From Candidatus Woesearchaeota archaeon (GTDB taxonomy: Archaea; Nanobdellota; Nanobdellia; Woesearchaeales; JACPIF01), in NCBI GenBank assembly GCA_016188215.1, contig JACPIF010000010.1, forward strand, positions 43,174-107,173: a stretch of DNA of 64,000 nt. Direction: 5' to 3'. Position numbers and translations under genes: made by a program. Of this stretch, positions 21,570 to 48,228 are shown in pieces (the stretch's first letter is position 1; each line of letters starts with the position of its first letter). Under the pieces are notes generated by a model. The model was not told the origin of the DNA, did no database searches, and saw only the letters and a program-made list of their open reading frames with translations.

Positions 21570-21718
21570 TAATAGTAAAGTGCAGAAATAATGGAACTTA
21601 TATATAAAGCACTTTACTATTCTAGCAAATCTCGCAAATCACAGAAACACCTTGTGTTTCTGGGACAAGGAAACCAAAAGTTTCCTATGAGTTCAATAAT
21701 TAACGAGATTTGCTATAA
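21570..21718 (+). repeat. 149-bp repeat, copy 1 (inverted partner at 48081-48228)
   Basis: The reverse complement of 48081-48228 matches 21570-21718 except for one 1-nt indel (tatatataaagc vs tatatataagc). The repeat contains internal hairpins agaaacac/gtgtttct and ggaaac-caaaa-gtttcc. Confidence 0.85.
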
Positions 21719-21891
21719 GAACAGAGGTAGCAGTTTACTTTAGCGCATGCTGTATTATTCCCAGATTGCAGCTTTTATGCTTACTGCACCATTCTTCACA
21801 CTTCTCTGCCCATGCCTTGTCTGCATACGCAAACCCGCACTCTTTGCAGATAAAGGATTTCATGCTCTAACAATGACCTTACACTATAAAA

Positions 21892-22359
21892 ATGTTTTTA
21901 AACACAACTATACCTCCTTTCTATATGGTAGACTGGAATGTGATTAGGTATATTACCGATAAGATTGGGCAAGGTGAGCAGCCCGCAGCCATTAAGCAGC
22001 AGCTTGTAGCAAATGGCTATGACATGAAGCTCATCAATGAGTCATTTACCCAGGCGATCCCATGGCTCAAGCAGGAGGATGCAGATAAAATTAAGGCTAT
22101 GCAGGCAGCAGATAAGCCAGTAGTTCAGCCGCCAGCCCAGCCAGCCCAAAGCGCTCAGCAGGCCCCAAAGCCGGTTGAGCAGTCTACTCAACCTCAATCA
22201 GCACCAAACCCACAGCCTGTTGCAGAACCTACAGTTAGCCAGACAGTTCAAGGGCAGGAAGAGCCAAAGCAAAAATTAAAAATCAAGAAATCCTGGGTAT
22301 ATACCTCAATTGCAGCAGTTGTTATAGCTATAGTTGCACTGTATGCCCTTCTGCGCTAA
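21892..22359 (+). CDS. Pro/Gln-rich protein with C-terminal TM anchor
   Basis: The product has low-complexity PAQPAQSAQQAPKP and a C-terminal hydrophobic helix. Confidence 0.4.
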   Translation: MFLNTTIPPFYMVDWNVIRYITDKIGQGEQPAAIKQQLVANGYDMKLINESFTQAIPWLKQEDADKIKAMQAADKPVVQPPAQPAQSAQQAPKPVEQSTQPQSAPNPQPVAEPTVSQTVQGQEEPKQKLKIKKSWVYTSIAAVVIAIVALYALLR

Positions 22360-22410
22360 ATTTTCAAGGTTGCCATAATCTTTAAAAACACCTCAAAAAT
22401 CTACATCCTT

Positions 22411-22692
22411 ATGACACTTGCTGACATAGCAGGACTACCTACATCTTTGATGCCGGCAGTTGAGCTTAGAAATATACATTTCTATGAAGAAAGATCCTTA
22501 TATGATGAGGCTATCTTAAGAAAACTGCAGGAAGGCCTGCGCGACAAAAGAGATGCATTGTACAGGGCTGTTGAAATGTCACAACATGGCCCAGCCAAGG
22601 AATTTCTGCTGCATAGGGCTGCATCCTGTGTTGTTGTGCTTATGGATATCAAACAAGCCTTAAATGCCAAGGCTCATGGGGCGTATTCATAA
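22411..22692 (+). CDS. hypothetical protein
   Basis: The ORF is 93 aa with no family recognised. Confidence 0.3.
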   Translation: MTLADIAGLPTSLMPAVELRNIHFYEERSLYDEAILRKLQEGLRDKRDALYRAVEMSQHGPAKEFLLHRAASCVVVLMDIKQALNAKAHGAYS

Positions 22693-22724
22693 TCTTTTTA
22701 TAGTTTCATTCACATAATGAAAGC

Positions 22725-23714
22725 ATGAACATAATTAGAACCCTTGCTGGCAGGTCTCCAGAGCTGAATGGCGTCGTAGCATGGATAAATTCCAAGCCCC
22801 TGTTCCTCAGGAACCTTCATGGCAAGGTAGTATTGATAGATTTCTGGACATACAGCTGCGTTAATTGCTTAAATACAATCCCGCATATGAAGGCATTGCA
22901 TAAAAAATATGCAAAGCATGGGCTTGTTATCATTGGAGTGCACACCCCTGAATTCACATTTGAGAAAAATACGGATAATGTAAAGGCTGCTGTCAAGCGA
23001 TTAGGCATTGAATACCCTGTGGTGGTTGATTCTGAGCTTGAGGTGTGGAATGCATTTGGCAACAGCTATTGGCCAAGGCAATACCTGATCAATAAGGAAG
23101 GTAAGATAATATATGACCACGTAGGTGAAGGGGGTTATGAGGAAATAGAACGGAATGTGAGAAAGGCGCTTGCTGAAGCCGGCGCCAATTTAAATAGGGA
23201 AGCGCAGATTGCAGCCCCTAAAGAAAAAAGCAGGGCAAAGGGATTCCTGTTCATTACGCCAGAGATTTATCTGGGATATGCGCGCAGCAAAGGGTTTGGC
23301 AATGCCAAAGTATGCATTCCCGGAAGCTGTGAGCATTATGTTGATGCAAAGGAGCACGTTGAGCATATCCCTTACCTCCATGGCGACTGGGCGCAGCACA
23401 AGGAATTCTTGGGCCACGAAAAGGGAGAATCTGGCTATATCGCATTAAAATATGTGGCAAGGAAAGCAAACATTGTACTCGGCTCTGCATCAGGAAAGCC
23501 TTACACTATGGCTGTTACCCTTGACGGCAAGCCTGTCCCTAAAAATATGGCTGGAAGCGATATAAAAAGGGATGATAAAACTGGTGCAACCTACATACTG
23601 GTTGACAGGCCGGACATGTACAACCTTACCAGCATCCCGGAATTTGAGAAACATGAGTTAAGGCTTATTACAAATAGTGATGATTGTGCAGCTTATACAT
23701 TTACTTTCAGCTAA
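22725..23714 (+). CDS. thioredoxin-like protein, DipZ-C-type (CxxC = CVNC), soluble paralog of 9943-11052
   Basis: DFWTYSCVNCLNTIPHM..IIGVHTPEFTFEK..YWPRQYLIN is collinear with 9943-11052, including the C-terminal AYTFTF(S/G) end. No TM segment is present. Confidence 0.7.
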   Translation: MNIIRTLAGRSPELNGVVAWINSKPLFLRNLHGKVVLIDFWTYSCVNCLNTIPHMKALHKKYAKHGLVIIGVHTPEFTFEKNTDNVKAAVKRLGIEYPVVVDSELEVWNAFGNSYWPRQYLINKEGKIIYDHVGEGGYEEIERNVRKALAEAGANLNREAQIAAPKEKSRAKGFLFITPEIYLGYARSKGFGNAKVCIPGSCEHYVDAKEHVEHIPYLHGDWAQHKEFLGHEKGESGYIALKYVARKANIVLGSASGKPYTMAVTLDGKPVPKNMAGSDIKRDDKTGATYILVDRPDMYNLTSIPEFEKHELRLITNSDDCAAYTFTFS

Positions 23715-24296
23715 TCATTTCTTGCTGAATATCCGCGCGTTATTGGTTACGCTGGCAAGCTGCCGGTCAATATCTTCCTGGCTGCCTTCACCATATGTAA
23801 CTAATATCTTGTCAAGGTCAAAGAACTCATAATCCTTGTAATTATCTATGAGCATCCCGTTGACGTACACCCTCAGCTTCTTAGTGGTTGTGTCGCACAG
23901 CTTCCTGCTTTCAAAAGTAATGCAATTCCCTTCAAAGGCAAATCCAAGGGTGCTCAAAAAATAGCCTATTGTTACACCTGTTGCATGCTTATGTAGCACA
24001 TCCCCTCTACCCTCTTCAAGGTGTACAAATTTATCAGTAAGCTGGTATCTCAGTTGGGACAAGTCAAGTTGAGTTCCATCAACATATATTGCAATATCCG
24101 CATGCTCATGCACGCTCCCAAGCTGACCAACTTTCTGGTGATTAATGAATTCAGGGCGCGGATAATCAGGAAGGGGTTTCCTGAGATGCTCCGGCAGCTG
24201 CTCCTCATTGTCTGTGAACTGTTTATACAGGACAATAATGAAAAGCAATACAATTGCAGCCCCTCCTATGTACAAATAGATTCTCTTGGTTTTCAT
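23715..24296 (-). CDS. membrane-anchored His-rich protein, unknown function
   Basis: There is an N-terminal TM segment, and HEHADIAIYVDG..HLEEGRGDVLHKH suggests metal ligands. Confidence 0.4.
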   Translation of the reverse strand: MKTKRIYLYIGGAAIVLLFIIVLYKQFTDNEEQLPEHLRKPLPDYPRPEFINHQKVGQLGSVHEHADIAIYVDGTQLDLSQLRYQLTDKFVHLEEGRGDVLHKHATGVTIGYFLSTLGFAFEGNCITFESRKLCDTTTKKLRVYVNGMLIDNYKDYEFFDLDKILVTYGEGSQEDIDRQLASVTNNARIFSKK

Positions 24297-25246
24297 GGCG
24301 TGTCCAGCTCTTCTACAACTTTAATCAGATACAACCGTGCAAATGCCAGTGCAGGGATAACAAGCACAAAACCAAGTACAAGTGCAAGCCATTGATTTGC
24401 TGATCCTACAAGCTGAAGCAAGTAGTTTATTGTTATAAAGATTCCTGTCAATATCAAGAATAATGGAAGAAGATACTGGATATTTAGAACTCCTAATGAA
24501 AATGAGCTGCGGTATGTCCCCCAGTCCCTGTATTTCCCGAGCAGCCCGTAGGAGATAAAGGCAAAATATGACAATACAATCAGGTATACGAACAGCGACC
24601 AGTACACAAGAGCAGCGCTGCTTGGCTGGTTCAGCCTTAAAGCACGCTGTGCAATATATCCATAAACAATGTTAGTACCATAATAGAGCAGGAATAATAT
24701 GTACCACAAAATGTTAATCCTGAAGAATTGCCATAAGAATTTGTAGAATGCTAACCCCTTATTAGCTTGTTTCTTTGCAATAAACCATGCAATTCCCTGG
24801 AAAAAGCAGTATAAAAAATAAGCTATTAATGATAGTATCAACAGCAGCAACAAAAAGTTCCTTAAGTAATATCCTGTCGGATCCCCTGCGAATGCGCCTA
24901 TTATGCCTTTTGTCGGCACAAGCTCGCTTATCTCAGCATGGCGGTCTTGGGCAACATAGGCAATTGCCTGCACATGCTCAAGTATCTTTATCCAGATTGG
25001 GGCTGTGATGAAGCCGTATATGAGGAAAAACAGCATATCAAATATTCCCGGCAGCAGGATGTAAGATTTATGCGCAGCCATATGCCCAAGCGTTTCCCTG
25101 AATTTCCGGACTAGGATGAAATTAGATACTTCACTATTTTCCTGCTTTATACTCTTTTTCATGGGGTAGGAAGCGCCGCCGGGTATGGGAAAACGTATCC
25201 TATGAGCATTGAGAATAGCAGTATCAACAGTAGAATTACTAGGCAT
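24293..25246 (-). CDS. polytopic membrane protein, unknown function
   Basis: About 8 hydrophobic helices are predicted. The gene is translationally coupled (4-nt overlap) to 23715-24296. Confidence 0.45.
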   Translation of the reverse strand: MPSNSTVDTAILNAHRIRFPIPGGASYPMKKSIKQENSEVSNFILVRKFRETLGHMAAHKSYILLPGIFDMLFFLIYGFITAPIWIKILEHVQAIAYVAQDRHAEISELVPTKGIIGAFAGDPTGYYLRNFLLLLLILSLIAYFLYCFFQGIAWFIAKKQANKGLAFYKFLWQFFRINILWYILFLLYYGTNIVYGYIAQRALRLNQPSSAALVYWSLFVYLIVLSYFAFISYGLLGKYRDWGTYRSSFSLGVLNIQYLLPLFLILTGIFITINYLLQLVGSANQWLALVLGFVLVIPALAFARLYLIKVVEELDTP

Positions 25247-25267
25247 ATCGCCAAAGTGAATACATCC

Positions 25268-26059
25268 TTACTTATTTTCATGATTCCTCTTTAACCGGTA
25301 CAGCATGATAGCTCCGCCCACAAACATGGGAAAAGTGAGCAGCTGACCCATGGTAAAGTAGCCCAAGAAGAAGCCAAGCTGTGAATCCGGCTCTTTCACA
25401 AATTCTATCAGGAACCGCAGAAGGCCGTACATTGTGACAAAGCTCCAGAACAGGAACCCGTCCGGAAGCATCTTATCTTTGATCTTCCATAAGGTTGCAA
25501 AGATGGCAAGATTCTTTAGCGATTCATATAACTGGCTGGGATGCCTGAATCCTTCTGCATCCGGAAATTTCACGCCCCAGGGCATCTCAGTTACCCTGCC
25601 GTATACCTCTCCATTGAGGAAATTGCCTATCCTTCCGAGAGCAAGGCCGATGGCAGCAGGTATCACTGCTATATCAGCAAGCTTATAGAAGCTGATCTTC
25701 TTTTTCCTGCAGAAATACCAGCCTGCAAGCGCCGCTCCCGCTAATCCGCCATGGAACGACAATCCGCCATGCCACACCGCAACCATCTCCAGGGGATTCT
25801 GGAGGTAATATTGAAGGTTGTAGAAAACAATGTAAAATACCCTTGCCCCTGCCACCACACCTACCAGGATGTACAGGATAAGGTCGGCTGCATCATCATC
25901 AGTAATGCCCAGCTTTCGCTGCTTAGCCAGGTATCTTATCATGAAATACGCTATGATGAATGAGAGCATGTAGAGCATGCCGTAATACCGTATCTCAAAG
26001 TTCGCGCCAAAGAGCGTGAAATCAAACAGTGTAGGATTTATGTTATGGATAAATACCAT
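25268..26059 (-). CDS. lgt: prolipoprotein diacylglyceryl transferase
   Basis: GANFEIRYYGMLYMLSFI..AGARVFY..ALGRIGNFLNGEVYGRVT..RHPSQLYESL are the Lgt signature motifs. Start is placed at the internal ATG 26057-26059. Confidence 0.7.
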   Translation of the reverse strand: MVFIHNINPTLFDFTLFGANFEIRYYGMLYMLSFIIAYFMIRYLAKQRKLGITDDDAADLILYILVGVVAGARVFYIVFYNLQYYLQNPLEMVAVWHGGLSFHGGLAGAALAGWYFCRKKKISFYKLADIAVIPAAIGLALGRIGNFLNGEVYGRVTEMPWGVKFPDAEGFRHPSQLYESLKNLAIFATLWKIKDKMLPDGFLFWSFVTMYGLLRFLIEFVKEPDSQLGFFLGYFTMGQLLTFPMFVGGAIMLYRLKRNHENK

Positions 26060-26182
26060 CTTGGAACACAAAAATCCGCTGGCATTTAAAGCTTGCGGAA
26101 GCTTGTCTCCATTGACAGAATATAAGTTTTCAGACAAAGAAATGCACCAACCTTTAAAAAGACCCGTTTTATTGATGGCCAC

Positions 26183-27001
26183 ATGGTCAATTATAGTGCA
26201 GAACTTATGGAATTTTACAGGATGAGCAGCCAGGTTAGCGGAATAGCAGCTGCCATTAAAGAAATGGAACCAAGGCTTCCTCCTGATCATACATTTGTAG
26301 ACATAGGGGCGCATTCCGGCCTTCTTACGAAAGAAATAATCAGACATTTGAATCCGGCAGCCGCGTATGCTTGTGAACCCCTACCAGACCCATATCAGAC
26401 CTTGCGGCGAAGAAGATATCATAAAGAAACATCTGTCACTGTTGATAATCTTGATTTTGCAGGGTGGTACAGGAAGCATGGAAGCAGGCTGGAAGGAAAG
26501 GTAGACCTGCTGCTGAACTCGCACACATTCTGCCATTACCCGCAACGTAGCTGGGAGGGTGTATTTGAAAAATGCAGCGGCTTGCTAAGCCAAGCTGGCT
26601 TGCATATTATTATAATAGACGCTGAGCAGAATCCGCTCGCCTTGCTGAAGCCTGAAGTTGAGAAAAAGCTGAAAGGAATCCGAAAAGTTCCAGTATATGG
26701 CAATTTTGTAACCGGCTACGACATTGAGCAATTTCTCAAGGCACGAAACATTGCCTATGAGCGTGGGGGTATTGAAAAGCCAATCACAATAAAATTGAGC
26801 GATGACTCGGAGAGGCAATTTGCAAGATTGCTCGGTTTCTTATTTAGATACAGGGCAGAGGACGTGATGCACTATGCAGACCCCCTTATAAAGAAACATC
26901 TTAACCGGTACGGTCCCTTCAGGACATCATTTGGAGTGAAATCACAGCCTGTCTTTCAGATTCCGCGAGTGCAAGACGTATTTTTATTAGGGAAATCTTA
27001 G
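26183..27001 (+). CDS. putative SAM-dependent methyltransferase (FkbM-like)
   Basis: The glycine-rich motif I is VDIGAHSGLLTKEI. The call is weak. Confidence 0.4.
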   Translation: MVNYSAELMEFYRMSSQVSGIAAAIKEMEPRLPPDHTFVDIGAHSGLLTKEIIRHLNPAAAYACEPLPDPYQTLRRRRYHKETSVTVDNLDFAGWYRKHGSRLEGKVDLLLNSHTFCHYPQRSWEGVFEKCSGLLSQAGLHIIIIDAEQNPLALLKPEVEKKLKGIRKVPVYGNFVTGYDIEQFLKARNIAYERGGIEKPITIKLSDDSERQFARLLGFLFRYRAEDVMHYADPLIKKHLNRYGPFRTSFGVKSQPVFQIPRVQDVFLLGKS

Positions 27002-27078
27002 CTTCTGTATCTCTACCCCCTACATAACACAGCAGCTGTGGAAAAGCTTTAATAGAATGCTGTTATTCTGAAGCCGGT

Positions 27079-27378
27079 ATGAAAAGAACTATTGATGCCA
27101 AAGTTTTAGAAGGGAATTCCGCTGTATTGGAAGCGCTTTCTTTTGCCTATAGGCTGGAAAGATGCACTCTTGACGATTTTCAAAGTAGGGGATTGTCAGT
27201 AGGTGCAAGAGCATTATTGGATAAGGGATATCTAAGAAGAGAATCTGGAGAGGACACAGCAGCTGAAGGAGGCGTTATTATTACAGATACTGGAAAAAGA
27301 TTATACGAGCAAGCACTTAAATATGCCGCCACTGTTCTCAAACTAGACACTAGTACGCCACAAACTTCTCCACCTTGA
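27079..27378 (+). CDS. hypothetical protein
   Basis: The ORF is 99 aa with no family recognised. Confidence 0.3.
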   Translation: MKRTIDAKVLEGNSAVLEALSFAYRLERCTLDDFQSRGLSVGARALLDKGYLRRESGEDTAAEGGVIITDTGKRLYEQALKYAATVLKLDTSTPQTSPP

Positions 27379-27413
27379 TCAGTTCCGGTTTGTGAACAAT
27401 ATTCTCTTAGCCA

Positions 27414-30029: not shown

Positions 30030-30030
30030 A

Positions 30031-31571: not shown

Positions 31572-31579
31572 TATATCAC

Positions 31580-31813
31580 CTAATGCCTATGCCCAGCTCC
31601 CTTACCATGGCGCATGCCGTACATCATCACCACATGCACCAGGATCATTGCACCAATTGCGATAAGCGTAAGCAGCGCATTATTCTTCCACCCAAAGTAC
31701 GGAGCTATTGCAAAAATAGCTATTGGAACTAGGCAGGCAAGCATCATAAGCCACATAGAATGGCCATGACCATCTGCAATGCCATATGTCTTCTTGGCAC
31801 TACCGGTTCCCAT
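31580..31813 (-). CDS. small His-rich membrane protein (DUF2933-like)
   Basis: GHGHSMWLMMLACLVPIAIF plus a His-rich tail (HGKGAGHRH) resembles the small proteins often found beside metal ATPases. Confidence 0.45.
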   Translation of the reverse strand: MGTGSAKKTYGIADGHGHSMWLMMLACLVPIAIFAIAPYFGWKNNALLTLIAIGAMILVHVVMMYGMRHGKGAGHRH

Positions 31814-32081: not shown

Positions 32082-32099
32082 TTTTATCTTCCTCCTTGC

Positions 32100-32240
32100 A
32101 TCTTAAAGATATATCTTATTTTGACATATAGTGAAACTAACAAATATTTAAATCTTTGCATTATATCCTATTTTGATATATGAGATTGCTTGGCAATCTC
32201 GGATACTCAAAAATAGGTCTATTTTTGATATATCAAGAAA
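32100..32240. promoter_or_regulatory. divergent promoter region with three ~52-bp-spaced ATTTTGAYATAT motifs and a perfect 8-3-8 palindrome
   Basis: The motif occurs at about 32114-32130, 32167-32182 and 32218-32234. The palindrome gagattgc-ttg-gcaatctc is at 32182-32200. The outer motifs sit about 25-30 nt from the two divergent start codons, which is a TATA-like position. Confidence 0.4.
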
Positions 32241-32260
32241 TACAAAGTTATTTATAATTC

Positions 32261-33944: not shown

Positions 33945-34283
33945 TTAACAACCCCCAACCATGCCGGATGATGAAGGTGTTGCTCCTTGCTGCACTCCCG
34001 CAGGAAGCACGCCATGGTGCTCATACATCATCTTATCGTTCTCTGACCATGAGGATATGTCAAGCGATTGCTGCCCTGCCACTGATGCTCCAGACGCAAT
34101 CTCTCCCCTTAGTGTATTTATCTGGAATGCCTGCACTACTACAAACAGCAGCACAAGGCTGACCATGCCGAGGATTATGTAGCTCCTTAGCTTGCCCTGG
34201 CCTGATTCATGGCTCTCTCCAGCTTTTTCCTTGCTGTGTGAGCCACAGCAATCCTCTACTCCTTTTTCGTCTCTATGTCTCAT
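33945..34283 (-). CDS. single-TM protein ending in C-terminal MVGGC
   Basis: The N-terminus has DCCGSH, one TM follows, and the protein ends ..SSSGMVGGC. The SD GGAGGT lies 8 nt upstream. Confidence 0.5.
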   Translation of the reverse strand: MRHRDEKGVEDCCGSHSKEKAGESHESGQGKLRSYIILGMVSLVLLFVVVQAFQINTLRGEIASGASVAGQQSLDISSWSENDKMMYEHHGVLPAGVQQGATPSSSGMVGGC

Positions 34284-34392
34284 TTTTGATACCTCCGAAT
34301 TTATGAGGAGGTTCCAAATTCCTGTTTGATACCTCCGAATTTATGAGGAGGTTCCAAATTCCTGTTTGATACCTCCGAATTTATGAGGGGGT
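34284..34392. repeat. 40-bp direct repeat x2.7 in 5' region of 33945-34283
   Basis: The unit tttgatacctccgaatttatgaggaggttccaaattcctg repeats with period 40. Each unit has the inverted repeat cctcc-N10-ggagg. Confidence 0.85.
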
Positions 34393-34453
34393 CAGAAACC
34401 GAGAAAAGCTATGCTTTTCTGGTCCCGAAAATCTATGGATTTTCGTGGAATTA

Positions 34454-37034: not shown

Positions 37035-37170
37035 CTACCTACCCCTTTTTAATTAAGTACACGCTTATTGCTATATAAAGTTAACGGTGCATCTATACTA
37101 GAAAAGAAAATAAAAAATAAAATCTTATCATGCGCTATTGGGCTCTTCAATGTTTATGCTTTATTGAAAT

Positions 37171-37434: not shown

Positions 37435-37573
37435 CCAACTCGACTCTTTGCTAAATGAGAGCTAGTGAGCCTATTGGGTTTACTTGCTAGCCTAGCAAGC
37501 TTCGGCTTGTTAGATCTTATTTTTGTCCATTCTGACTGTAACTCGTACTTAAACTTTATGATGGTAACGGCGC

Positions 37574-39199: not shown

Positions 39200-39227
39200 G
39201 ATATACAAAGGTATGCACTGCTTTAAA

Positions 39228-40067: not shown

Positions 40068-40075
40068 CTCTAAAC

Positions 40076-41074
40076 CTATTTGAGCTTGAGCTTTAAATTC
40101 TTATCTTTTTGCTTGCTGGACTGCCTGGCCTTGCCACTTCTTCTCCAAAAGTAGACCATCAATATAATAAATGCTGCCAACAGCAGCCCGCCAAGGATAT
40201 TGCCGAGAGCAGAGCCGAACAGTTTGCGCTGCCAGTCATAGAAGAGCAATTTGCCGCCGAACATGCTGAAGGCATTGAACTTCCAGGTTCCTCTGTAAAC
40301 GTAGATGATAACTCCCATTGCGATTAAAAGCAAGCCTCCGAGCATGTTGCTTGAATTAAATGCAAACCTGCCAAGATAGATTGTCTTGCCGCGCATCCAG
40401 GGCTTGCTTCCAAGATCATAGCGGTCATATAATCCTGCTATGATGAACAATGGGACAAGAATACCTATCCCGTAAAAGAAGAATAGCAATGTTGCATAGA
40501 AGAAATTGTGCAAATAAGTTGCCATGACAAGAATTCCTACTAAGATAGGCCCTAAACAGGCGCTCCACCCAACAACAAAGAACATACCTAGAAGGTACAT
40601 GCCAAGGTAATCATGCCTGAACCTTCCGGGCTTGATGAACGAGGAAAATCCTTTGCCAAAGAACAGCATTATGCCTAAAGCAATAAGAAGCAGCCCGGAC
40701 ACCTGGGGCAATATGGATGACTCTTCCTGTAAAAAGAGAAATGATTTTCCTATATAGGCTGCAATTAAGCCGAGAGCTATAAACACTGTCATAAACCCGG
40801 CAGAAAATGCAAGCATTACCCTAAAGATATCCTTCTTTTCCTTAAAGGTAAATGCGAAGAAAGCAGGAAGTGTAGTTGCAGTGCATGGGCTCAGCAAGCT
40901 GATGAATCCTGCAAGGAAAGCTATGAGGAATGATATGTTCCTCACATTAGCTTCAGCATCCTGCTGGTTTGATGCCATGGCATTCAGCAGGCTCTGCGGC
41001 AGCTGCTGGGGATATGCAATCGGTATAAATAATAAGACAAGAAATAAAAAAATAACTATATTTTTGGTTTTCAT
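40076..41074 (-). CDS. DsbD/CcdA-family transmembrane disulfide electron transporter (extended)
   Basis: A signal peptide is followed by LSPCTATTLPAFFAF and a second conserved Cys (WSACLGPILVG). Confidence 0.7.
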   Translation of the reverse strand: MKTKNIVIFLFLVLLFIPIAYPQQLPQSLLNAMASNQQDAEANVRNISFLIAFLAGFISLLSPCTATTLPAFFAFTFKEKKDIFRVMLAFSAGFMTVFIALGLIAAYIGKSFLFLQEESSILPQVSGLLLIALGIMLFFGKGFSSFIKPGRFRHDYLGMYLLGMFFVVGWSACLGPILVGILVMATYLHNFFYATLLFFFYGIGILVPLFIIAGLYDRYDLGSKPWMRGKTIYLGRFAFNSSNMLGGLLLIAMGVIIYVYRGTWKFNAFSMFGGKLLFYDWQRKLFGSALGNILGGLLLAAFIILMVYFWRRSGKARQSSKQKDKNLKLKLK

Positions 41075-41075
41075 A

Positions 41076-41498
41076 CTACCTGACGATAATGCTGCCTTTC
41101 ATGTCACTATGGCCTGAGCCGCAGAAAACAGTGCATATCATGCCTGGATTGAATGTTCCTGTCTTGTCTGCAACAAATTCAATAGTCTGGGTCTCGTTAG
41201 GCGGCAGCCTGACGCTCTCCACGCCGAAATCAGGCAGTGCCATGCCGTGGGTTACATCAATGCTTGTCACTTTCAGCCTTACCCTGTCCCCTTTATTGAC
41301 TTCAATAGTACTGGGAATAAATTCCCATCTCTTTGCAGTAATCTCAAATTCCTTGACGGGAATTGTCACGCTATTTCCAGTATTATCTCCGGTATTATCT
41401 CCAGTATCCTCTTCAGTATCAGTTCCCTGAACTATTGGCTGAGTCTGCGTGCAGCCTGCTAAAAGCAGGAGAGCGATCAATATAAGATATTTTTTCAT
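41076..41498 (-). CDS. cupredoxin-domain lipoprotein with CuA-like C-x3-C-x3-H-x2-M motif
   Basis: The lipobox is LAGCTQT. The motif EFITAKRWEFIPSTIEVNKGDRV..THGMALPDFG..GMICTVFCGSGHSDMKG has COX2/NosZ-like CuA ligand spacing. Confidence 0.6.
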   Translation of the reverse strand: MKKYLILIALLLLAGCTQTQPIVQGTDTEEDTGDNTGDNTGNSVTIPVKEFEITAKRWEFIPSTIEVNKGDRVRLKVTSIDVTHGMALPDFGVESVRLPPNETQTIEFVADKTGTFNPGMICTVFCGSGHSDMKGSIIVR

Positions 41499-41528
41499 GT
41501 AGACCTCTGAAAAGCTATTTCTCTGAAA

Positions 41529-42767
41529 CTATTGAGCCTGCGGCTGCGGCTCAACAACCTTATTGCTCTTTAGATCCTTATAAGTGCCCAGCGCTTCAGT
41601 AAACCTGAACACATAAACAGCCTCACCAGTGGCTGTATCGTTAGTTGCGGTGCCGACCTCTTTCCATAGTTCCACCACCTGCGGATAGGCTTCCAAATCA
41701 TTGGAAAGGAAAATTGTAGGAACCTTTGTTATATTATAATTCTGCAGGAATCTTTTGCCTTCATTTGATGAGATATCATATGTGTGCTCATCCCCTGTTG
41801 TGACCCCTAAGCTAGCCAATATCTGCTTGTGAAGGGCAGCATCATAGCATGCAGTGCAGCTTTTGTCAGTGATATAGGTTATATCAACCAACCCCACAAT
41901 ATCTTTTTTCTGCAGGTCATAGTAAGGCATGGCGACTTCCCGTAATATATATGAGCCGTCTGCTTCATGCGTTCCTACTGCAGCCCAGTTCTGCTGTACA
42001 GCCTCATAATCGCCAATGCTGTCGCTGAACACCAATGCAGGCAATTTCTTTATGCTATACTTGCTGAGCAGCTGCTGCCCTTCCTTTGAAGAGGCTTCAT
42101 ATTTTTTTTCATCATTGATATAAACGCCGGCTGCCTTAGCCTGCACCAGGAATTCATTCAGGTCAGTGCAGTTTCTGCAACCATCCTTAAATATAAGGAC
42201 AGCACTTACCACACCTTTCAGGCTGCCTGTCTTCAAGTCAATGTACGGCGCAGGGGTTGCAAGGACATAAGCATCATCCCTTTTCTCAAGCTGCTGTGCC
42301 AGGCCGCTCTTTTCAACCTCGCCGGTTACTATCAACGCAGGGATACGCTCAATGCTATATTGTGCTATAAGCTCCCGGGCCTGCGCATCGTTTCTCTCAT
42401 AAACTGTTTCTTTTGTTACAGTAACCTTGCCTTCCTTGAGCAATTCTACAAGCCTTTCAAGCGCAACGCAGTTTGTGCAGCTGCTGTCTTTAATAGTGAC
42501 AAACTGGAGCTGCGCCGGCTTTGACTGCTCCTCAGCCTGTGCAACTGTATTTTTTATCTGGCCCTGCAATATAAACAGGATTATCACATTGACAATCAAT
42601 ATGGCTGCAAGCCCTATAAGAAGGACGTTTCTCCAGTTTTCCCAGTCAAACTGCTTATCCCTAGCCATTGGCTCCAGGCGCTTTTCGTGTTTCAAACCTC
42701 CTGGTTTGAGACTAGGAACAAAGTTCCTATGCTTCATTTTATGCCCTTTCTGCTTTCCAGTATCCAT
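41529..42767 (-). CDS. membrane-anchored protein with three tandem thioredoxin-fold CxxC modules
   Basis: A TM anchor is followed by three repeats: SCTNC..RIPALIVTGE, GCRNC..KLPALVFSD and SCTACYDA..KVPTIFLSN. Confidence 0.55.
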   Translation of the reverse strand: MDTGKQKGHKMKHRNFVPSLKPGGLKHEKRLEPMARDKQFDWENWRNVLLIGLAAILIVNVIILFILQGQIKNTVAQAEEQSKPAQLQFVTIKDSSCTNCVALERLVELLKEGKVTVTKETVYERNDAQARELIAQYSIERIPALIVTGEVEKSGLAQQLEKRDDAYVLATPAPYIDLKTGSLKGVVSAVLIFKDGCRNCTDLNEFLVQAKAAGVYINDEKKYEASSKEGQQLLSKYSIKKLPALVFSDSIGDYEAVQQNWAAVGTHEADGSYILREVAMPYYDLQKKDIVGLVDITYITDKSCTACYDAALHKQILASLGVTTGDEHTYDISSNEGKRFLQNYNITKVPTIFLSNDLEAYPQVVELWKEVGTATNDTATGEAVYVFRFTEALGTYKDLKSNKVVEPQPQAQ

Positions 42768-42780
42768 CGTATCAACTCTT

Positions 42781-43281
42781 TTACACTACTTGGCTGCCTT
42801 GCCCGGCTTCTGTATCTTGATTTGCTGCCATTCCCGAGAGCGGGCATCCTGTTAGCTGTGACAGCCTATCAAAGCTTTGTACACCCTCATACCGCTCGCC
42901 ATTGATTTCCCATGTAGGGGTTTTCCTGATGCCTTGAGTTTCCTTGTAGTCCTTATAATTGACATACTTGAATGAATTGCCAAACCAGGCTGCCTGCTGT
43001 TTCGTATACTGGCACCAGCCAATTGCACCGTACATGACTGCGCCTTTATCCGTAAGGCATTTTGCAAATGCGTCATACTGCCCTGGCTTGAATTTAGCTG
43101 AGTATATTGAATATGAAAGCCCGCCGAAGATCAATACAATGATGACAGCAGCACTAATGAAATAAAGCCTTGTTTTCCGGCTTTTTTCACCCTGAAATCT
43201 TGCCAGGTCAGCCTCATGCTGCTTTCTGAGCGCTTCTGCCTGCTCCCTGTGCCTTTGCTGCGCTAGCTTAGAACTATCCAT
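42781..43281 (-). CDS. membrane-anchored VKOR-associated-type thioredoxin-like domain with CxxT in place of CxxC
   Basis: VMYGAIGWCQYTKQQAAWFGNSFKYVNY..TPTWEINGERYEGVQSFDRL resembles the Trx domain fused to bacterial VKORs. The second Cys is Thr. Confidence 0.5.
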   Translation of the reverse strand: MDSSKLAQQRHREQAEALRKQHEADLARFQGEKSRKTRLYFISAAVIIVLIFGGLSYSIYSAKFKPGQYDAFAKCLTDKGAVMYGAIGWCQYTKQQAAWFGNSFKYVNYKDYKETQGIRKTPTWEINGERYEGVQSFDRLSQLTGCPLSGMAANQDTEAGQGSQVV

Positions 43282-43308
43282 TGTGCATGCATTTTCTTGT
43301 GCATAATA

Positions 43309-43533
43309 TTATGCAGATGGCGCTCCTGCACTGGCTGCATCAGCTGCCGCGCCTGTGTCTGCTGCAGGCGCTGCGACTCCGCATCCGCCGCCTACGGCAG
43401 CCTGCTGCCCCTGAGGCTGGCCCTGATATGCCGCATATCCTGATGGCGTCTGGTTTTTAGTGCATCCTGCCAAAAGCAGAAGAGAGATGCTTATAACCAA
43501 TGCCACAACTAAAATTCCTTTTCTCATTAGCAT
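43309..43533 (-). CDS. small Gly/Ala-rich lipoprotein
   Basis: The lipobox is LAGCTKN, with a GGGCGV motif. Confidence 0.4.
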   Translation of the reverse strand: MLMRKGILVVALVISISLLLLAGCTKNQTPSGYAAYQGQPQGQQAAVGGGCGVAAPAADTGAAADAASAGAPSA

Positions 43534-43620
43534 TACCCCCGTATTTTATTATTTCAAAATAAAATAATAAGCAAGCAAAAATAGCCTGCTATTTAAAGCT
43601 TGTTGCCCGCGTACAGTCCG

Positions 43621-43857
43621 CTAACAGCCGCCTACCATTGTCGGCAGGTTCTGGATGCTTGACGGCACATTCGGGCTGCCCTGCTGTCCGGACTGGCTTA
43701 CTGTGTTTTGGGCAGTTCCGCCTACTTTCAACTGGCCGCTTGCCAGCTTGCTTTTCAGGCCTACTAACTGAACTGCCTGCACCAAGGTTACTAATACCAG
43801 CACTACCAGCACAATCACGATTACTGTATTCTTGTTCATTTCTAAACCTCCTAACAA
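43621..43857 (-). CDS. single-TM protein ending in C-terminal MVGGC
   Basis: The protein has a TM and a Gln/Ser-rich tail, and ends ..IQNLPTMVGGC. Confidence 0.5.
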   Translation of the reverse strand: MLGGLEMNKNTVIVIVLVVLVLVTLVQAVQLVGLKSKLASGQLKVGGTAQNTVSQSGQQGSPNVPSSIQNLPTMVGGC

Positions 43858-44579
43858 CCTCCTACCATTGCCGGCAGCGCGCCTATGCTTGAGGTATCGC
43901 CTGTGCTTAGCTTGCTCAAGAGCTGCGCATCGTTTAGGCTGGATGCAGTGAGCTCCATGTCATTGCTCAGCAAGGCTGCTGCCTTTTCTACCATATTCCT
44001 GGGGTAGTATAAAGATTTCCATTTTGTCAATTCAAGCAGGATCTCATCATTTGTATATTCAGGATGCGTCTTGATGAGATATTTTGACAGGCCCATGAAT
44101 GATTGCGCATGGGAGCATCCGCACAGGTCCCTTCCATTGTTGTCAACTACTGAAGGTGCCCCGCAGCAGAACTCACAGCTGATCCTTGTGCCAATGTCAA
44201 TATACCTCTGCTTTTCATCACCAGTCAGGCTGCCTGTTGGCACTTGGCCATGGAGGCTCGCCAGCCTGTTAAGGCTATTTACTGGATCGTCATATGAGAC
44301 TCCAAGCTCAGGCCCCCACTCGGGAGTTCCAGTAGGTATCAACGCGTTGATTGCATCCTGGACATTATCGCCTGTGCGCTTCACTTCAAGGGCAAGCTCG
44401 CCGCTCGTTCCTTTAGTCATCTTGCTGCCTGAAGGGGTAAACGTCTTAGATATAGTATTTGTGCTCAAAGGGCCAGGGCTTGCAATGGTTGCAATCTGGA
44501 ACCAATTGAATAGAATCAGGAGTGCGACCGCACCAATCACGTATAAGCTGTATCTTTCAACAAATTCGTTGCTTTTCAT
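43851..44579 (-). CDS. membrane-anchored Cys-rich protein, CxxCC..CGC family, with C-terminal MVGGC
   Basis: It is a paralog of 34454-35107 and ends ..IGALPAMVGGC. Confidence 0.55.
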   Translation of the reverse strand: MKSNEFVERYSLYVIGAVALLILFNWFQIATIASPGPLSTNTISKTFTPSGSKMTKGTSGELALEVKRTGDNVQDAINALIPTGTPEWGPELGVSYDDPVNSLNRLASLHGQVPTGSLTGDEKQRYIDIGTRISCEFCCGAPSVVDNNGRDLCGCSHAQSFMGLSKYLIKTHPEYTNDEILLELTKWKSLYYPRNMVEKAAALLSNDMELTASSLNDAQLLSKLSTGDTSSIGALPAMVGGC

Positions 44580-44685
44580 GCGCCCTCAAAAATAAGATCT
44601 GAATCCCCGACGAAAGACATACTGTTACAACCTTTGTAAAACTTAAAGTATATAAAGTTTTCGCTTGATTTTTATGATTTGGCAT

Positions 44686-44733
44686 TATTCTCGTATTCTC
44701 GTATTCTCCTATTCTCCTATTCTCCTATTCTCC
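44686..44733. repeat. 8-bp microsatellite (TATTCTCS)x6 in divergent promoter
   Basis: The repeat reads tattctcg tattctcg tattctcc tattctcc tattctcc tattctcc and is followed by tatataatc. Confidence 0.8.
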
Positions 44734-44808
44734 TATATAATCATTAAAGCATATAAGGGCAATTGTTATAAATAGTATTCTTTCAATAAGAGGAAAGCGG
44801 GTGGTAGA

Positions 44809-45303
44809 ATGACCCTTATGACAGCTGAAATTGGCGAAAGAAGAGATGAAAGGCTCCTTGAAGACAGTGTAGATGCATTAATAGGACAGACAACAGGCGC
44901 CTCCTCAGATGAAAAGTTTGTAACCAGGATAATGTATGAGAATCAGCCATTTATTGATATCTTTGGAGACTCTGCTCAAGTATACATTCGCGGAACTTCA
45001 CCAAAAATGCCTGATAGGCTCAGAAGGATAGTTCAAGACAAAGAGAAAATTGAGGGTGGATCTGATGCTAATTCTGTGGTAGCCGATATTGAAAATGAGC
45101 CAGGGATAACTAAATCTATAGAGATGGTGAGGCGAATTGGGTTGCTTGGAAAAAACATAATAGATGTGTATAGGGCTTCAAGGCAAGTCCATGTCCGTGT
45201 TCCCTCCTCGCGATTGCCTGATATATTGCAGGAAGTCTTACGGTTGTACCAGCATGAGGGTTATGGCATCTCTGGTGGCGCACCATCTGCAGGGTTCTTT
45301 TAG
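44809..45303 (+). CDS. hypothetical cytoplasmic protein
   Basis: The ORF is 164 aa with no family recognised. Confidence 0.4.
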   Translation: MTLMTAEIGERRDERLLEDSVDALIGQTTGASSDEKFVTRIMYENQPFIDIFGDSAQVYIRGTSPKMPDRLRRIVQDKEKIEGGSDANSVVADIENEPGITKSIEMVRRIGLLGKNIIDVYRASRQVHVRVPSSRLPDILQEVLRLYQHEGYGISGGAPSAGFF

Positions 45304-45418
45304 ATCTAACTCAATGGAAAAACAAAGTTTTTTCATGGGATTTGAAAAAGAATTTTTCAATTTTTGAACCTTTACAAAAAGCGTAAAGTATTTATAGTTT
45401 GCAGGGAATCTGCATGGC

Positions 45419-45778
45419 ATGAGACGACTCAGGTTTGCCGGGACTAATGATTCTGTGCTGAGCCCGCTTGAAAATGATGTTCTAAAGATTCTGTGGCCTG
45501 ACAAGAGGATGAAGGTGCGCGCAATCTACGACAGGCTGAAAGGGAAGCGAAAGGTTGCCTTGTCAAGCATTGCGGTGATCCTGGACAGGCTGCATGAGCG
45601 CTCTATTGTTGAGCGGCAGATTGAGACAGGCAGAGGAGGGGTGCGCTATATATACTTCCCTAAGAAAAACAAGCAGGAATTTGAGACCGAGATCGTCGAA
45701 TCCACTGTCAATTCACTCATAAACAAGTTCGGGCAGACTGCAATCAGTTATTTCAATGAGCGGTTTTCAAAACGGTAG
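45419..45778 (+). CDS. BlaI/MecI/CopY-family winged-helix repressor
   Basis: LSPLENDVLKILWPDKRMKVRAIYDRL...ALSSIAVILDRLHERSIVERQ fits the family. Confidence 0.6.
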   Translation: MRRLRFAGTNDSVLSPLENDVLKILWPDKRMKVRAIYDRLKGKRKVALSSIAVILDRLHERSIVERQIETGRGGVRYIYFPKKNKQEFETEIVESTVNSLINKFGQTAISYFNERFSKR

Positions 45779-45817
45779 GTTTAAAAGGGCAATAAGCTTT
45801 GAAAAAGAGGGGTTACC

Positions 45818-46564
45818 ATGGATCTAACGTGCTCAAGCTGCGCATATGCGTTTTTTACTGATCCCTTAAAGATGGGATTGGTACTTGTATCTTTTACCCT
45901 AGCCATAGCTTTTTTCCTGTATCTAAGATATGCAAGGGGCATAAGCAACGGAAGGAAACTCGGCCTGATATATGCCCACATATTCTTCCTGGTCTTCCCG
46001 GTTGTGTTTTATATGCTCTTTAGGGGATGTACTACATACTTCTCAAATTGTGACCAGCTCAAACCTGTCATAGCGCTGCTGTTCCTGACCGGCCTTACAG
46101 CAGGATTGCTGGGGGCAGTAATAGCTCCATTCCTCTTTATCAGGAAGCATGCCAGGATATCAATCCCATTAAGGGAAGGGCATCTTGCTGATGTTGTCAG
46201 GAAGCACGGCGGCAGGAAAAAGGCACAGCTGTACATGCTTGATACTGCCAAGCCGCTGGCATTTTCCACGTCTCACTTCAGCCATAAGATATTTGTCTCA
46301 ATCGGGCTGGCAGACCTGCTTACAAAGAAAGAAAAGGAAGCTGTCGTGCTGCACGAGCTCGCGCATCTTCATAATAAATCCTCGCTGCTGAAAAGCTCAA
46401 CCTTCCTGCTTGGCCTGGTGTCGCCGCTTTCAAACTTCTCAAGCATACATAGTGTAACGCAGGAGGAAGAGAAGGCAGACAGGTTTGCCGCGGCGAGGCA
46501 AGGCACCTGGCGCTATGTGCGGTCTGCAAAACAGAAGATTAACGAATTCTATAGAGAATCCTGA
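45818..46564 (+). CDS. BlaR1-like M56-family membrane metalloprotease
   Basis: About 4 TM helices carry HExxH (VVLHELAHLHNK). The gene is adjacent to the BlaI-like repressor. Confidence 0.6.
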   Translation: MDLTCSSCAYAFFTDPLKMGLVLVSFTLAIAFFLYLRYARGISNGRKLGLIYAHIFFLVFPVVFYMLFRGCTTYFSNCDQLKPVIALLFLTGLTAGLLGAVIAPFLFIRKHARISIPLREGHLADVVRKHGGRKKAQLYMLDTAKPLAFSTSHFSHKIFVSIGLADLLTKKEKEAVVLHELAHLHNKSSLLKSSTFLLGLVSPLSNFSSIHSVTQEEEKADRFAAARQGTWRYVRSAKQKINEFYRES

Positions 46565-46617
46565 GTATGCCTTATAGTCTATAATTTTAAATAAAAGAGA
46601 ACTTAAAGGATCGCCTT

Positions 46618-47784
46618 ATGGTACGGATAGTAATTCTTGGAGCAGGATTCGGCGGCGTATATGCTGCGCTCCGCCTGCAAAAAGGGCTCAGGAAAGGGGA
46701 TTCATTGGTTGTAGTAAGCATCCAAAAGGATTTTGTGTTCACGCCCCTGCTTCATGAGGTCTCTGCAGGCTTCCTCAGCGCTTCAGACGTCTCTATACCA
46801 TTATCTTCACTTCTCAGGAAGTGCCAGCTGATACAGGGGGATGTCAAAAGCATTGACTTTAATAGGCAGGTTGTGGCGGCTGGCTCTAAAAAAGTTCCTT
46901 ATGATTTACTGCTCATTGCATTAGGCGCAATGCCCAATAAGAGCGTTCTATCCCATATAAATATAAAGCAGCGCAGGAAGTTCCTGCAGCTCAAGACAGT
47001 GCATGACGCCAAGGCTCTCCATAAGAGACTGGCTGATCCGCATAAGCAAAAAAGCGTCCTTGTTATCGGAGCCGGAGCAACAGGCATTGAGGCTGCAGCT
47101 GAGGCAAAAGAATTTTTCAAAGAAAATGGATTCAATGGAGCCAAAGTCTCTATTGTGCAGGACCTGCCTGATATATTTTTAGATAAGCCTGCGAGTTTCA
47201 GGAATTATATTAAAAAAAGCCTTGGAAGGCAGAATATTACTATTTTCTATGACGCCCTGCTTGCTTCCTATGCGGATGATACTGCGGTCATTCAAACGCC
47301 TGAAGGGAAAAAGAAGATTGAGGCTACAGTGCCACTATTGGCAGCAGGCGTGATTCCTGTCCCTGTCAAGACATTTCCTAAGATTACCGATGAAAAGGGA
47401 TTTTTTAATGTCAATCAATTCCTTGAAGTAAAAGGAGCAAAGAGCGTATGGGCAGTGGGAGATATCTCCTTATATCTCAATCCTGTAGACAAAAAGCCAG
47501 TCCCCATGCTTGCACAGGCCGCTAAAGATGAGGGGATATTTGCCGCAGGGAACATAGCCGCCAAGCTCAGCGGTAAGCCGCAGAAAGCCTACAAGTTCCA
47601 CAGCAAAGGTTTCCTGCTTTCACTTGGGAAGTTTGATGGTGTTGGGAATGCGTTCGGCATTCCTGTAAAGGGGTTCATTGCGTGGTGGCTGAAGCGCACT
47701 GCATATGCGATGGAAGCCCCGGGATTTTCAAATAAGCTGAGGATGTTCTGGAGATTGAGTATTGCATCGCTGTTCAAGAGGTAA
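46618..47784 (+). CDS. type II NADH dehydrogenase-like FAD-dependent oxidoreductase
   Basis: RIVILGAGFGGVYAA..FTPLLHEVSAG is the NDH-2/SQR-type Rossmann pattern. A second GxGxxG (LVIGAGATGIEAA) is present. Confidence 0.65.
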   Translation: MVRIVILGAGFGGVYAALRLQKGLRKGDSLVVVSIQKDFVFTPLLHEVSAGFLSASDVSIPLSSLLRKCQLIQGDVKSIDFNRQVVAAGSKKVPYDLLLIALGAMPNKSVLSHINIKQRRKFLQLKTVHDAKALHKRLADPHKQKSVLVIGAGATGIEAAAEAKEFFKENGFNGAKVSIVQDLPDIFLDKPASFRNYIKKSLGRQNITIFYDALLASYADDTAVIQTPEGKKKIEATVPLLAAGVIPVPVKTFPKITDEKGFFNVNQFLEVKGAKSVWAVGDISLYLNPVDKKPVPMLAQAAKDEGIFAAGNIAAKLSGKPQKAYKFHSKGFLLSLGKFDGVGNAFGIPVKGFIAWWLKRTAYAMEAPGFSNKLRMFWRLSIASLFKR

Positions 47785-47786
47785 AG

Positions 47787-48029
47787 TATTTAATTAAGTC
47801 CTTTTTTGCAAAGCCATTCAAGTGGGGCAGGATAAAAGCGAGATGCAGGAAATTTGCTGCGCTTCATTCAGTTGATGATTATTATGTCCCCCTGCAGCAT
47901 GCAGGTGTCTTAAAGAGAAGACTAAATGCAGAGCTTATAATAAAATACAACATGAGGCATTTCTCAAACTCAGACGGAATCAAAAAACTGCCTGACGGGC
48001 TGAAAGCCCTGCTGAAGATGGCAAAGTAA
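47787..48029 (+). pseudogene. 3' remnant of alpha/beta-hydrolase (YdeN/RBBP9-like serine hydrolase); no start codon
   Basis: The frame reads ..ALHSVDDYYVPLQHAGVLKRRLNAELIIKYNMRHFSNSDG..*, matching the C-terminal catalytic Asp/His region (hS.DD..VP...L...l.AEli...n.GHF). The N-terminal two thirds are absent. Confidence 0.5.
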
Positions 48030-48080
48030 ATCAAATAAAGAGTTCAACAAAAAACAATAAAAGGAAAATAAAAGAAGATT

Positions 48081-48228
48081 TTATAGCAAATCTCGTTAAT
48101 TATTGAACTCATAGGAAACTTTTGGTTTCCTTGTCCCAGAAACACAAGGTGTTTCTGTGATTTGCGAGATTTGCTAGAATAGTAAAGTGCTTATATATAA
48201 GTTCCATTATTTCTGCACTTTACTATTA
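48081..48228 (-). repeat. 149-bp repeat, copy 2 (inverted relative to 21570-21718)
   Basis: See copy 1. The last 3 nt supply the TAA stop of the DoxX gene. Confidence 0.85.

Follow-up and report, generated by a model that had tools for sequence, protein, structure and literature searches.

In a 64,000-nt stretch of DNA from a Candidatus Woesearchaeota archaeon (contig JACPIF010000010.1, positions 43,174 to 107,173 of the forward strand; hereafter the window, with coordinates counted from its first letter), two near-identical inverted repeats of 149 and 148 nt bracket 26.4 kb of DNA. The repeats are best explained, with a probability of about 0.8, as independent insertions of one non-autonomous, non-coding element resembling a miniature inverted-repeat transposable element (MITE), with the pairing of the two copies being coincidental and the intervening DNA being ordinary syntenic chromosome. 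The evidence comes from the repeat pair itself, from its membership in a dispersed family with TA flanks and a site preference, from covariation within the family hairpins, and from synteny across both sites. An earlier reading of the same letters (the original prediction) had proposed that the repeats delimit a composite mobile or invertible segment or a genomic island, and had named as the contrary outcome a dispersed MITE family with a coincidental pair and enclosed genes of native composition; the latter is essentially what came out.

The repeat pair and its fold

Repeat search and blastn agree that copy 1 (21570-21718, 149 nt) is the reverse complement of copy 2 (48081-48228, 148 nt). The sole difference is an extra A in copy 1 (TATATAAAG vs. 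TATATAAG), and the identity of both arms stops sharply at each end. The near-identical 149-bp inverted repeats of the original prediction, with 148/149 identity and one 1-nt indel, are therefore confirmed. Independent assemblies were available as Logan contigs (k = 31) from several SRR121134xx runs with the same organism. At copy 1, contigs from SRR12113430, SRR12113384 and SRR12113385 end exactly 30 nt (k-1) inside the element, on both sides. At copy 2, the contigs that enter from the DoxX side (SRR12113430 and SRR12113433) end 30 and 28 nt inside the element, and contigs from SRR12113422 and SRR12113383 cross copy 2 with its own indel variant and end at 48081. Since these assemblies reproduce the junctions and the indel variant, the repeat, the 1-nt difference and the junctions are real and not an assembly artefact.

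A self-BLASTN comparison, proposed earlier as a way to find more copies, gave only these two in the 64 kb; neither blastn nor covariance models, including the family model R2 described below, detected a third copy in the window, full or partial. Many further family loci were found in related genomes instead. It should be noted that the dozens of other loci all lie in related genomes, this genome having been examined over the 64-kb window only. The parts of the two copies are as follows (strand refers to the family-consensus orientation).

21570-21718, minus strand: copy 1 of the MITE-like element (repeat search, blastn, R2, Logan contig breaks)
About 21572-21715: copy 1, element proper, with flanking TA at 21570-21571 and 21716-21717
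21718: shared flanking base, in keeping with the target preference
21571-21621: hairpin with a 13-bp stem, AATAGTAAAGTGC/GCACTTTACTATT, and a 25-nt loop; corresponds to family hairpin 2
21623-21715: hairpin with a 12-bp closing stem, TAGCAAATCTCG/CGAGATTTGCTA; corresponds to family hairpin 1, its loop enlarged by a nested insert
21635-21690: nested insert of approximately 52-54 nt in copy 1 (about 48109-48162 in copy 2)
48081-48228, plus strand: copy 2 of the MITE-like element, 1 nt shorter than copy 1
About 48084-48226: copy 2, element proper, with flanking TA at 48082-48083 and 48227-48228

The element folds better than shuffled controls on both strands (z = -8.0 and -6.5). The two small hairpins that the original prediction had named are present; the 13-bp and 12-bp stems are larger and had been missed, and the 12-bp stem encloses the two small hairpins. 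The latter constitute the nested insert, in which AGAAACAC-CTT-GTGTTTCT and GGAAAC-CAAAA-GTTTCC are linked by GGGACAA, and which carries short inverted ends of its own, TCAYAGRAAAC. In a 21-member family alignment (A2), the window copy differs solely by this 52-54-nt insert in the hairpin-1 loop, and the insert is missing from all 20 other members. Both window copies share it, which points to their recent derivation from one master copy. The window element has TTATAGCAAATCTCGTTAATTATTGAAC and TAATAGTAAAGTGCAGAAATAATGGAAC as terminal inverted repeats, which agree in 17 of 28 positions (manual count).

The element has no coding capacity, as had been stated from the outset: its 148-149 nt contain merely spurious open reading frames (ORFs) of 32-50 aa. 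The longest frame, compared with 1.8 billion protein representatives, gave one weak match (a 794-aa protein, E = 1.6e-4), which we judged spurious. In Rfam 15, no element match reached the gathering threshold and the best relaxed matches had E of at least 0.3; the sole match in the window was tRNA-Tyr. Two other identities were considered and rejected. An integron attC site does not fit, as no R'/R'' core motifs were recognized by eye and no integron-integrase-like gene was seen. A mobile promoter had been suggested by the TATA-like TTATATATAA in the 25-nt loop; this loop sequence is confined to the copies of this genome and is not conserved in the family.

A dispersed two-hairpin family at TA sites

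Exact 22-24-mers of the window element had no match in viral, GTDB-genome or JGI-metagenome collections, and phage and plasmid collections gave only chance-level matches or none. A covariance model of the single sequence recovered a 95-nt sequence in a relative (L009; L numbers are used here for fetched loci and contigs), with the same two-module layout and without the inner part. A 12-nt match to another relative (L011), not significant alone by our own estimate, became convincing after the covariance-model and pattern scans. The search pattern for hairpin 1, TATAGCAAATCNC-N15-45-GNGATTTGCT, had at least 120 matching stretches in metagenomes and at least 119 in the species-representative genomes of GTDB, with approximately 8 expected by chance (a rough estimate that assumes uniform base composition). 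Among the matches listed, 107 genome stretches belong to 48 archaeal-labelled metagenome-assembled genomes (MAGs), with up to 19 stretches per MAG, and the carriers are mostly Woesearchaeota or Nanoarchaeota from groundwater of the USA, Germany and New Zealand. The second hairpin is absent in 11 of the 12 bacterial-labelled matches listed, which therefore look like chance palindromes. In the fetched loci, we distinguished 123 full insertions with unrelated flanks.

Written with commas between flanks and element, the 5' half of the family unit is T, TA, TAGCAAATC(nnn), a loop starting TTAATAATGGAAC, (nnn)GATTTGCT(A), followed by 1-5 nt; the 3' half is TAG(T/G)AAAT..., a loop ending GTTCCATTATTT or CGAAAATTAA, ...ATTT(A/C)CTA(T), TA, R. 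The conserved termini are thus TAGCAAATC... and ...ATTT(A/C)CTA (also written TAGCAAATC...ATTTNCTA), with mirrored loop motifs, and the ends are inverted repeats of each other over approximately 22-28 nt, loop sequence included. Subfamilies have lengths of 90-98 nt and 113-119 nt. The window element represents the subtype with the stems TAGCAAATCTCG and AATAGTAAAGTGC; in blastn against the fetched loci it is 81-88% identical to family members over positions 1-70 and 93-97% over positions 121-149 (E down to 4e-16), for example in L044, L196 (NC_groundwater_274, 44% GC), L180, L088 and L251, where positions 71-120 are missing. The family covariance model R2 scores 78 bits for copy 2, 75.8 bits for copy 1 and 81.7 bits for the 95-nt member of L009. 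The MITE-like character suggested in the original prediction is supported by these results and becomes specific, as a dispersed two-hairpin family of Woesearchaeota. Judging from sequence, the window element shows most of the features by which MITEs are recognized: it is small and non-coding, has terminal inverted repeats, is dispersed, and appears to be site-specific with TA flanks. As far as could be found, the family is new: we found no published description, and the main text of a 2024 census of prokaryotic MITEs (PMC11602168) gives counts only. According to that text, a Woesearchaea genome is among those with the highest archaeal MITE densities (105 per Mb), which is consistent with the abundance of the family, although we found no sequence, structure or target of this family described there (PMC11602168).

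Both family stems are kept by compensatory change, with 93% of cells in the alignment being paired and seven stem pairs changing on both sides (57 cells). The stems reach a covariation score of 0.284, compared to 0.075 in shuffles (0 of 500 reach 0.284) and at most 0.049 with the partners slid. The search pattern prescribed the outer 9-11 bp of hairpin 1, and these pairs are uninformative in this respect; it left the positions that covary unconstrained. With its conserved termini and covarying hairpins, captured in a covariance model and a target motif, the family offers a handle for finding the mobilising enzyme.

The 3' flank, which the pattern left unconstrained, is TA in 102 of the 123 insertions, and T + TA in the subtype of the window. 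In the same set, T occupies position -3 in 88% and position +5 in 80%; pyrimidines account for 95% at position -3 and purines for 97% at position +3. A check for target-site duplications had been proposed in the original prediction; TA flanks both window copies, and most family members on the 3' side, and a duplication of TA would yield the same sequence as an insertion after TTA. A 3-nt duplication of TAA/TTA was excluded, since some family copies combine a left ATA or CTA with a right TTA. Three comparisons of filled and empty sites fit a single TA in the empty site; one of these pairs is a 90% identical paralogous repeat in L231, and two are homologous loci at 69-74% identity. In L231 (CAYRMP010000063.1), a family member at minus-strand offsets 3055-3165 lies inside one copy of a repeat of approximately 100 nt, and the uninterrupted, 90% identical paralogue at 408-510 is a natural empty site with a single TA.

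With respect to genes, only 6% of the elements lie inside ORFs of at least 90 aa; the distance to an ORF 3' end is at most 5 nt for 13% of them and at most 20 nt for 34%. The family is found at stop codons and gene ends, and it may promote rearrangements in the very small DPANN genomes. It also breaks short-read assemblies of Woesearchaeota MAGs at predictable places and is a handy marker.

Junctions and the DNA between the copies

The features that adjoin the copies, and the DNA between them, are listed here.

20889-21487, minus strand: vapBC (PIN toxin and VapB antitoxin), with its own promoter region at 21488-21569 (TATA and CTATAG repeats)
21719-48080: DNA between the copies; native chromosomal DNA and not a mobile unit, by synteny, composition and gene content
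47793-48029, plus strand: 5'-truncated PF06821 Ser_hydrolase remnant, between the NDH-2 stop codon and copy 2

At the left junction, window 19821-25267 has a colinear counterpart in an ENA contig of a relative (L014, whose Trx-like protein is 74% identical), the common order being glutaredoxin, NAD kinase (minus), a 43-aa zinc-ribbon gene (minus), a 148-aa gene (plus), the Trx-like gene (plus) and onward. In L014, the NAD kinase and zinc-ribbon genes are direct neighbours, 42 bp apart and without the element. In the window, vapBC and copy 1 sit between these two genes, with copy 1 placed between the vapB promoter and the stop codon of the small zinc-ribbon gene. The vapBC pair is absent at this position in L014 and occurs at other loci in other relatives. 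The toxin-antitoxin pairs that had been noted just outside both copies are present (PIN/VapB at 20889-21487, MazE/PIN at 49250-49863). We considered whether vapBC and the element form one mobile cassette and rejected this, as the vapBC loci of relatives lie elsewhere with the same promoter/operator and without the element. As a separate observation, the VapC family of the 20889-21569 region is 62-76% identical across many Woesearchaeota (L020, L021, L022) at differing loci, next to L35Ae, DUF357 or, in the window, NAD kinase; upstream there is always a TATA box with two or three CTATAG repeats, which are probably the VapB operator.

At the right junction, window 40079-49157 is colinear with a JGI metagenome contig of another relative (L001, amino-acid identities of 47-75%), in the order DsbD, cupredoxin, thioredoxin, several unnamed genes, BlaI-like, BlaR-like, NDH-2 (plus), DoxX (minus) and VKOR (minus). 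NDH-2 and DoxX are direct neighbours in L001, 18 bp apart and without the element; in the window, they are separated by the hydrolase remnant, a 51-bp spacer and copy 2. The statement that copy 2 supplies the DoxX stop codon (TAA, 48226-48228) proved correct, and in the alignment with a relative the C-terminus of DoxX is matched up to the last residue. On the minus strand, this TAA (48228-48226) consists of the flanking TA and the terminal base of the element. Because TA(A/G) stop codons fit the target motif, the position of copy 2 on the DoxX stop codon is explained, and the base beyond the other TA of copy 2 indicates that the stop before insertion was TAA as well. The start-less hydrolase remnant described earlier is likewise real: its 78 3' codons correspond to residues 109-186 of a 187-aa PF06821 protein of a relative (62% identity, E = 9e-35). 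It begins right after the NDH-2 stop codon and is absent there in L001, and an intact homologue is found in L009 at 6959-7522, approximately 2 kb from lgt. A truncated hydrolase beside NDH-2 implies a lineage-specific rearrangement or deletion. Taken with vapBC at copy 1, this suggests local rearrangement at both intergenic spots, not necessarily caused by the element; both window copies adjoin lineage-specific DNA.

Both junctions match the gene order of relatives in the present orientation; therefore, the 26.4 kb were neither inserted as a unit nor left inverted. The orientation of 21719-48080 is the ancestral one by L014 and L001; the short-read contigs (k = 31) break at the repeat and are uninformative on orientation polymorphism. 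The segment contains thioredoxin-like genes, lgt, CopA, PadR-TRASH, MarR-like, DsbD, cupredoxin, BlaI/BlaR-like and NDH-2 genes. Its GC content is 0.449, compared to 0.424 outside, and 5-kb windows wholly in the block have tetranucleotide distances to the window average of 10.5-13.2, compared to 9-13.5 for ordinary windows outside. No transposase or integrase was found in the block, and there is no transposase among any of the window proteins; the only recombinase of the window is a 263-aa tyrosine recombinase at 12061-12852, 9 kb from the block. The original prediction had treated the enclosed genes as specially enriched for copper and thiol-redox functions; however, this theme continues on both sides, with VKOR and DoxX on the right, and with Trx, DsbD, a Trx-like paralogue and thioredoxin reductase at 8.4-12.1 kb and glutaredoxin at 19.8 kb on the left.

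A role of the copies as boundaries of a composite transposon, of an invertible segment or of a copper/thiol-redox island gained by horizontal transfer is, in view of these data, very improbable, and we regard it as largely refuted. Such a unit would agree with the inverted orientation and near-identity of the copies, with CopA, DsbD, cupredoxin, thioredoxins and lgt lying inside, and with lineage-specific DNA at each copy; moreover, 149-bp inverted repeats can recombine in principle. None of the hallmarks of a composite transposon or island (synteny break, foreign composition, mobility genes) was found for 21719-48080, however. The two proposed checks that bear on this, a comparison with related genomes and an analysis of composition, both turned out negative: L014 and L001 show no synteny break and no inversion at the junctions, NADK(-)/Znr(-) and NDH-2(+)/DoxX(-) being preserved through them, and by tetranucleotides and GC the block matches the rest of the window and is not foreign. 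There is no transposase or invertase in or beside the block, and the redox genes outside it also speak against an island. The copper and thiol-redox cluster is native and syntenic, and therefore should not be annotated as horizontally acquired. What remains of interest is the family itself and the nested double-hairpin modules, the less usual traits being covariation and conservation across dozens of species.

Several other observations concern redox paralogues and composition. The glutaredoxin paralogues at 3237-3339 and 19831-19933 share 77% DNA identity over 103 nt, and the Redoxin+Thioredoxin_10 paralogues at 9943-11052 (outside the block) and 22725-23714 (inside) encode proteins that are approximately 37% identical. 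The only stretch of atypical composition lies outside the block, at 12.5-17.5 kb (GC approximately 0.36, tetranucleotide distance 31 vs. approximately 9-13 in most other parts of the window); it encodes PQQ/WD40 beta-propeller repeat proteins and adjoins the tyrosine recombinase (Phage_integrase, minus strand). The region 12061-17500 may be an integrated element; alternatively, the recombinase may just be XerA.

Mode of movement and related repeats

Prokaryotic MITEs with TA targets include SM1 of Sulfolobus, mobilised by the IS630-family element ISC1048, the Correia elements of Neisseria, RUP of pneumococci and MITEEc1 of E. coli. The enzyme class behind SM1 and RUP is the TA-duplicating DDE transposase of the IS630/Tc1-mariner type. 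To our knowledge, no mobilising enzyme has been identified for the Correia elements, and the same applies to the Woesearchaeota family. The family shares with these elements a length of 80-160 bp, the lack of coding capacity, an intergenic location, imperfect terminal inverted repeats, flanking TA and a large number of dispersed copies, and it can likewise abut or supply stop codons. In contrast to them, it consists of two adjacent, independently folding hairpins with covarying stems, and it extends over dozens of species with no parent insertion sequence (IS) known, whereas the named MITEs are confined to one species or genus. An element named MITEEc1_IS630 appears in the census (PMC11602168).

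Under the explanation that we prefer, the variant with the nested 52-54-nt double hairpin would have been copied recently in this genome; recent copying of one variant explains the 148/149 identity. The window contains two young copies of this variant, inserted at two TA sites in intergenic DNA, namely the gap between the zinc-ribbon gene and vapB and the DoxX stop codon, where insertion at TAA would regenerate the stop. The inverted orientation of the copies and their 26.4-kb spacing would be coincidental. Mobilisation would occur in trans, by a transposase encoded elsewhere; the simplest candidate is a TA-duplicating DDE enzyme of the IS630/Tc1-mariner type that would recognise the imperfect terminal inverted repeats of approximately 27 nt.

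A number of points weigh against this explanation. The search pattern itself prescribed the 5' TA, and, on sequence grounds, a TA duplication looks the same as the insertion after TTA of an element that ends in TA. The target is YTAR-like, but compared to the palindromic NTAN/YTAR preference of IS630/Tc1-mariner elements its -3/+3 positions are imperfectly symmetric, T being much more frequent than C on the left and A about as frequent as G on the right. A simple DDE mechanism acting on terminal inverted repeats does not require perfectly covarying hairpins within each half, and termini conserved across approximately 48 species are unusual for a purely selfish MITE. In the fetched loci, there is no ORF enclosed by two family termini at a distance of 0.7-2.6 kb, and no recurrent transposase-like ORF was found within approximately 4-7 kb of approximately 240 family loci, or in the window; the most recurrent ORF clusters near the elements are glycosyltransferases and housekeeping genes.

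Some of these points would be accommodated by a hairpin-recognising, single-strand enzyme of the HUH/Y1 class, which would insert the element 3' of TTA without true duplication, in the manner of palindrome-associated transposable elements (PATEs) derived from IS200/IS605, or of repetitive extragenic palindromes (REPs) that form REPINs (REP doublets forming hairpins) and are served by REP-associated tyrosine transposases (RAYTs). We consider this alternative unlikely. PATEs are MITE-like derivatives of IS200/IS605 (IS1341-type) elements in haloarchaea. The family resembles PATEs in being archaeal and non-autonomous with hairpin-bearing ends; unlike in PATEs, the ends are inverted repeats flanked by TA, and no association with tnpA/tnpB was seen. 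With REPs, their bacterial interspersed mosaic elements (BIMEs) and REPINs (PMC3733652, PMC3116915), the family shares short palindromic units in inverted dimers, intergenic placement often near ORF 3' ends, and compensatory stem variation. By definition, however, REPs have an unpaired GTAG/CGTC tag at the end of a 20-40-bp palindrome, and the RAYT gene is flanked by REPs (PMC3733652). By this definition, the family does not belong to the REP or REPIN-RAYT systems: the TAG of the family pairs with CTA inside the stem, no unpaired tag exists, and no RAYT-like neighbour gene was found near the family loci. The host, moreover, is archaeal. The HUH/Y1 alternative draws further on each half being an independent hairpin with compensatory changes, on the TTA of the left flank being far more strictly kept than its right mirror, on termini conserved in at least 48 species genomes from several continents, on some elements supplying or abutting stop codons as REPs do, and on IS200/IS605 being the most abundant and widespread IS family in archaea (PMC13343696). 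On the other hand, the ends form an inverted repeat of approximately 22-27 nt that includes the loop, which the ends of IS200/IS605 do not; a TA at either side is the classic signature of IS630/Tc1; and no recurrent small HUH-like ORF occurs near the elements. As an extension of this alternative, the family could be an old, largely vertically inherited Woesearchaeota population. REPIN-RAYT systems have been described as persisting over long times, with inheritance that is mostly vertical (10.1101/2022.05.22.493013), and such inheritance would fit the conserved termini across many species. The most far-reaching version is unlikely in our estimation: the family would be an old, structure-dependent repeat population of DPANN, REPIN-RAYT-like or moved by a hairpin-recognising single-strand transposase, kept in dozens of species of Woesearchaeota, perhaps together with nested double-hairpin mini-elements as a second class, with the covarying hairpins as the recognised substrate.

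It is improbable that the element is a host-functional structured unit under selection, for which a gene for a small RNA, a binding site for a protein, and a bidirectional terminator or insulator would be candidates; the window would in that case contain just two copies of such a gene. Strong folding on both strands, covarying stems, the frequent location just after ORF 3' ends, and a TATA-like box approximately 25 nt upstream of the 12-bp closing stem in the copies of this genome would all suit such a function; yet Rfam gives no match, and the TATA-like loop is not conserved. The positions are non-orthologous: the copy of L009 is displaced by approximately 1 kb, and neither L014 nor L001 has one at the sites of the window. 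The many copies per genome with unrelated flanks, the existence of empty sites, and the nesting of other small repeats inside family members also argue against a host function.

These other small repeats appear to form a second class, consisting of pairs or arrays of 17-25-nt hairpins with A-rich 5' arms and T-rich 3' arms, in which the double hairpins have spacers such as GGGACACC, GGGACAA or GGACCA, and the stems vary between copies yet stay complementary. In the window, they are found at 32176-32231, at 34402-34445 and, nested, at approximately 21635-21690 and 48109-48162; examples in the fetched loci are L113 1331-1379, L047 4372-4422 and L065 3520-3571. We counted 150 double hairpins (duplicates included) in 1.87 Mb of loci, compared to 0 in a mononucleotide shuffle. 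They are either free-standing or nested in family members at differing positions, and could be REP-like mini-elements or bidirectional T-run terminators.

Beside the double hairpin at 34402-34445, in intergenic DNA, three tandem 40-bp repeats occupy 34280-34399 (the other two are 95% and 83% identical to the first), each with a CCTCC...GGAGG hairpin. The relatives contain another recurring motif, GCGGAC-N4-GGCA(C), with variable small hairpins, upstream of a 185-aa gene and near the BlaI-like gene (L012 1-300, L010 1-210, L001 3929-3958 and 8852-8881). Several assemblies end at these sites, and the motif suggests another repeat or an operator.

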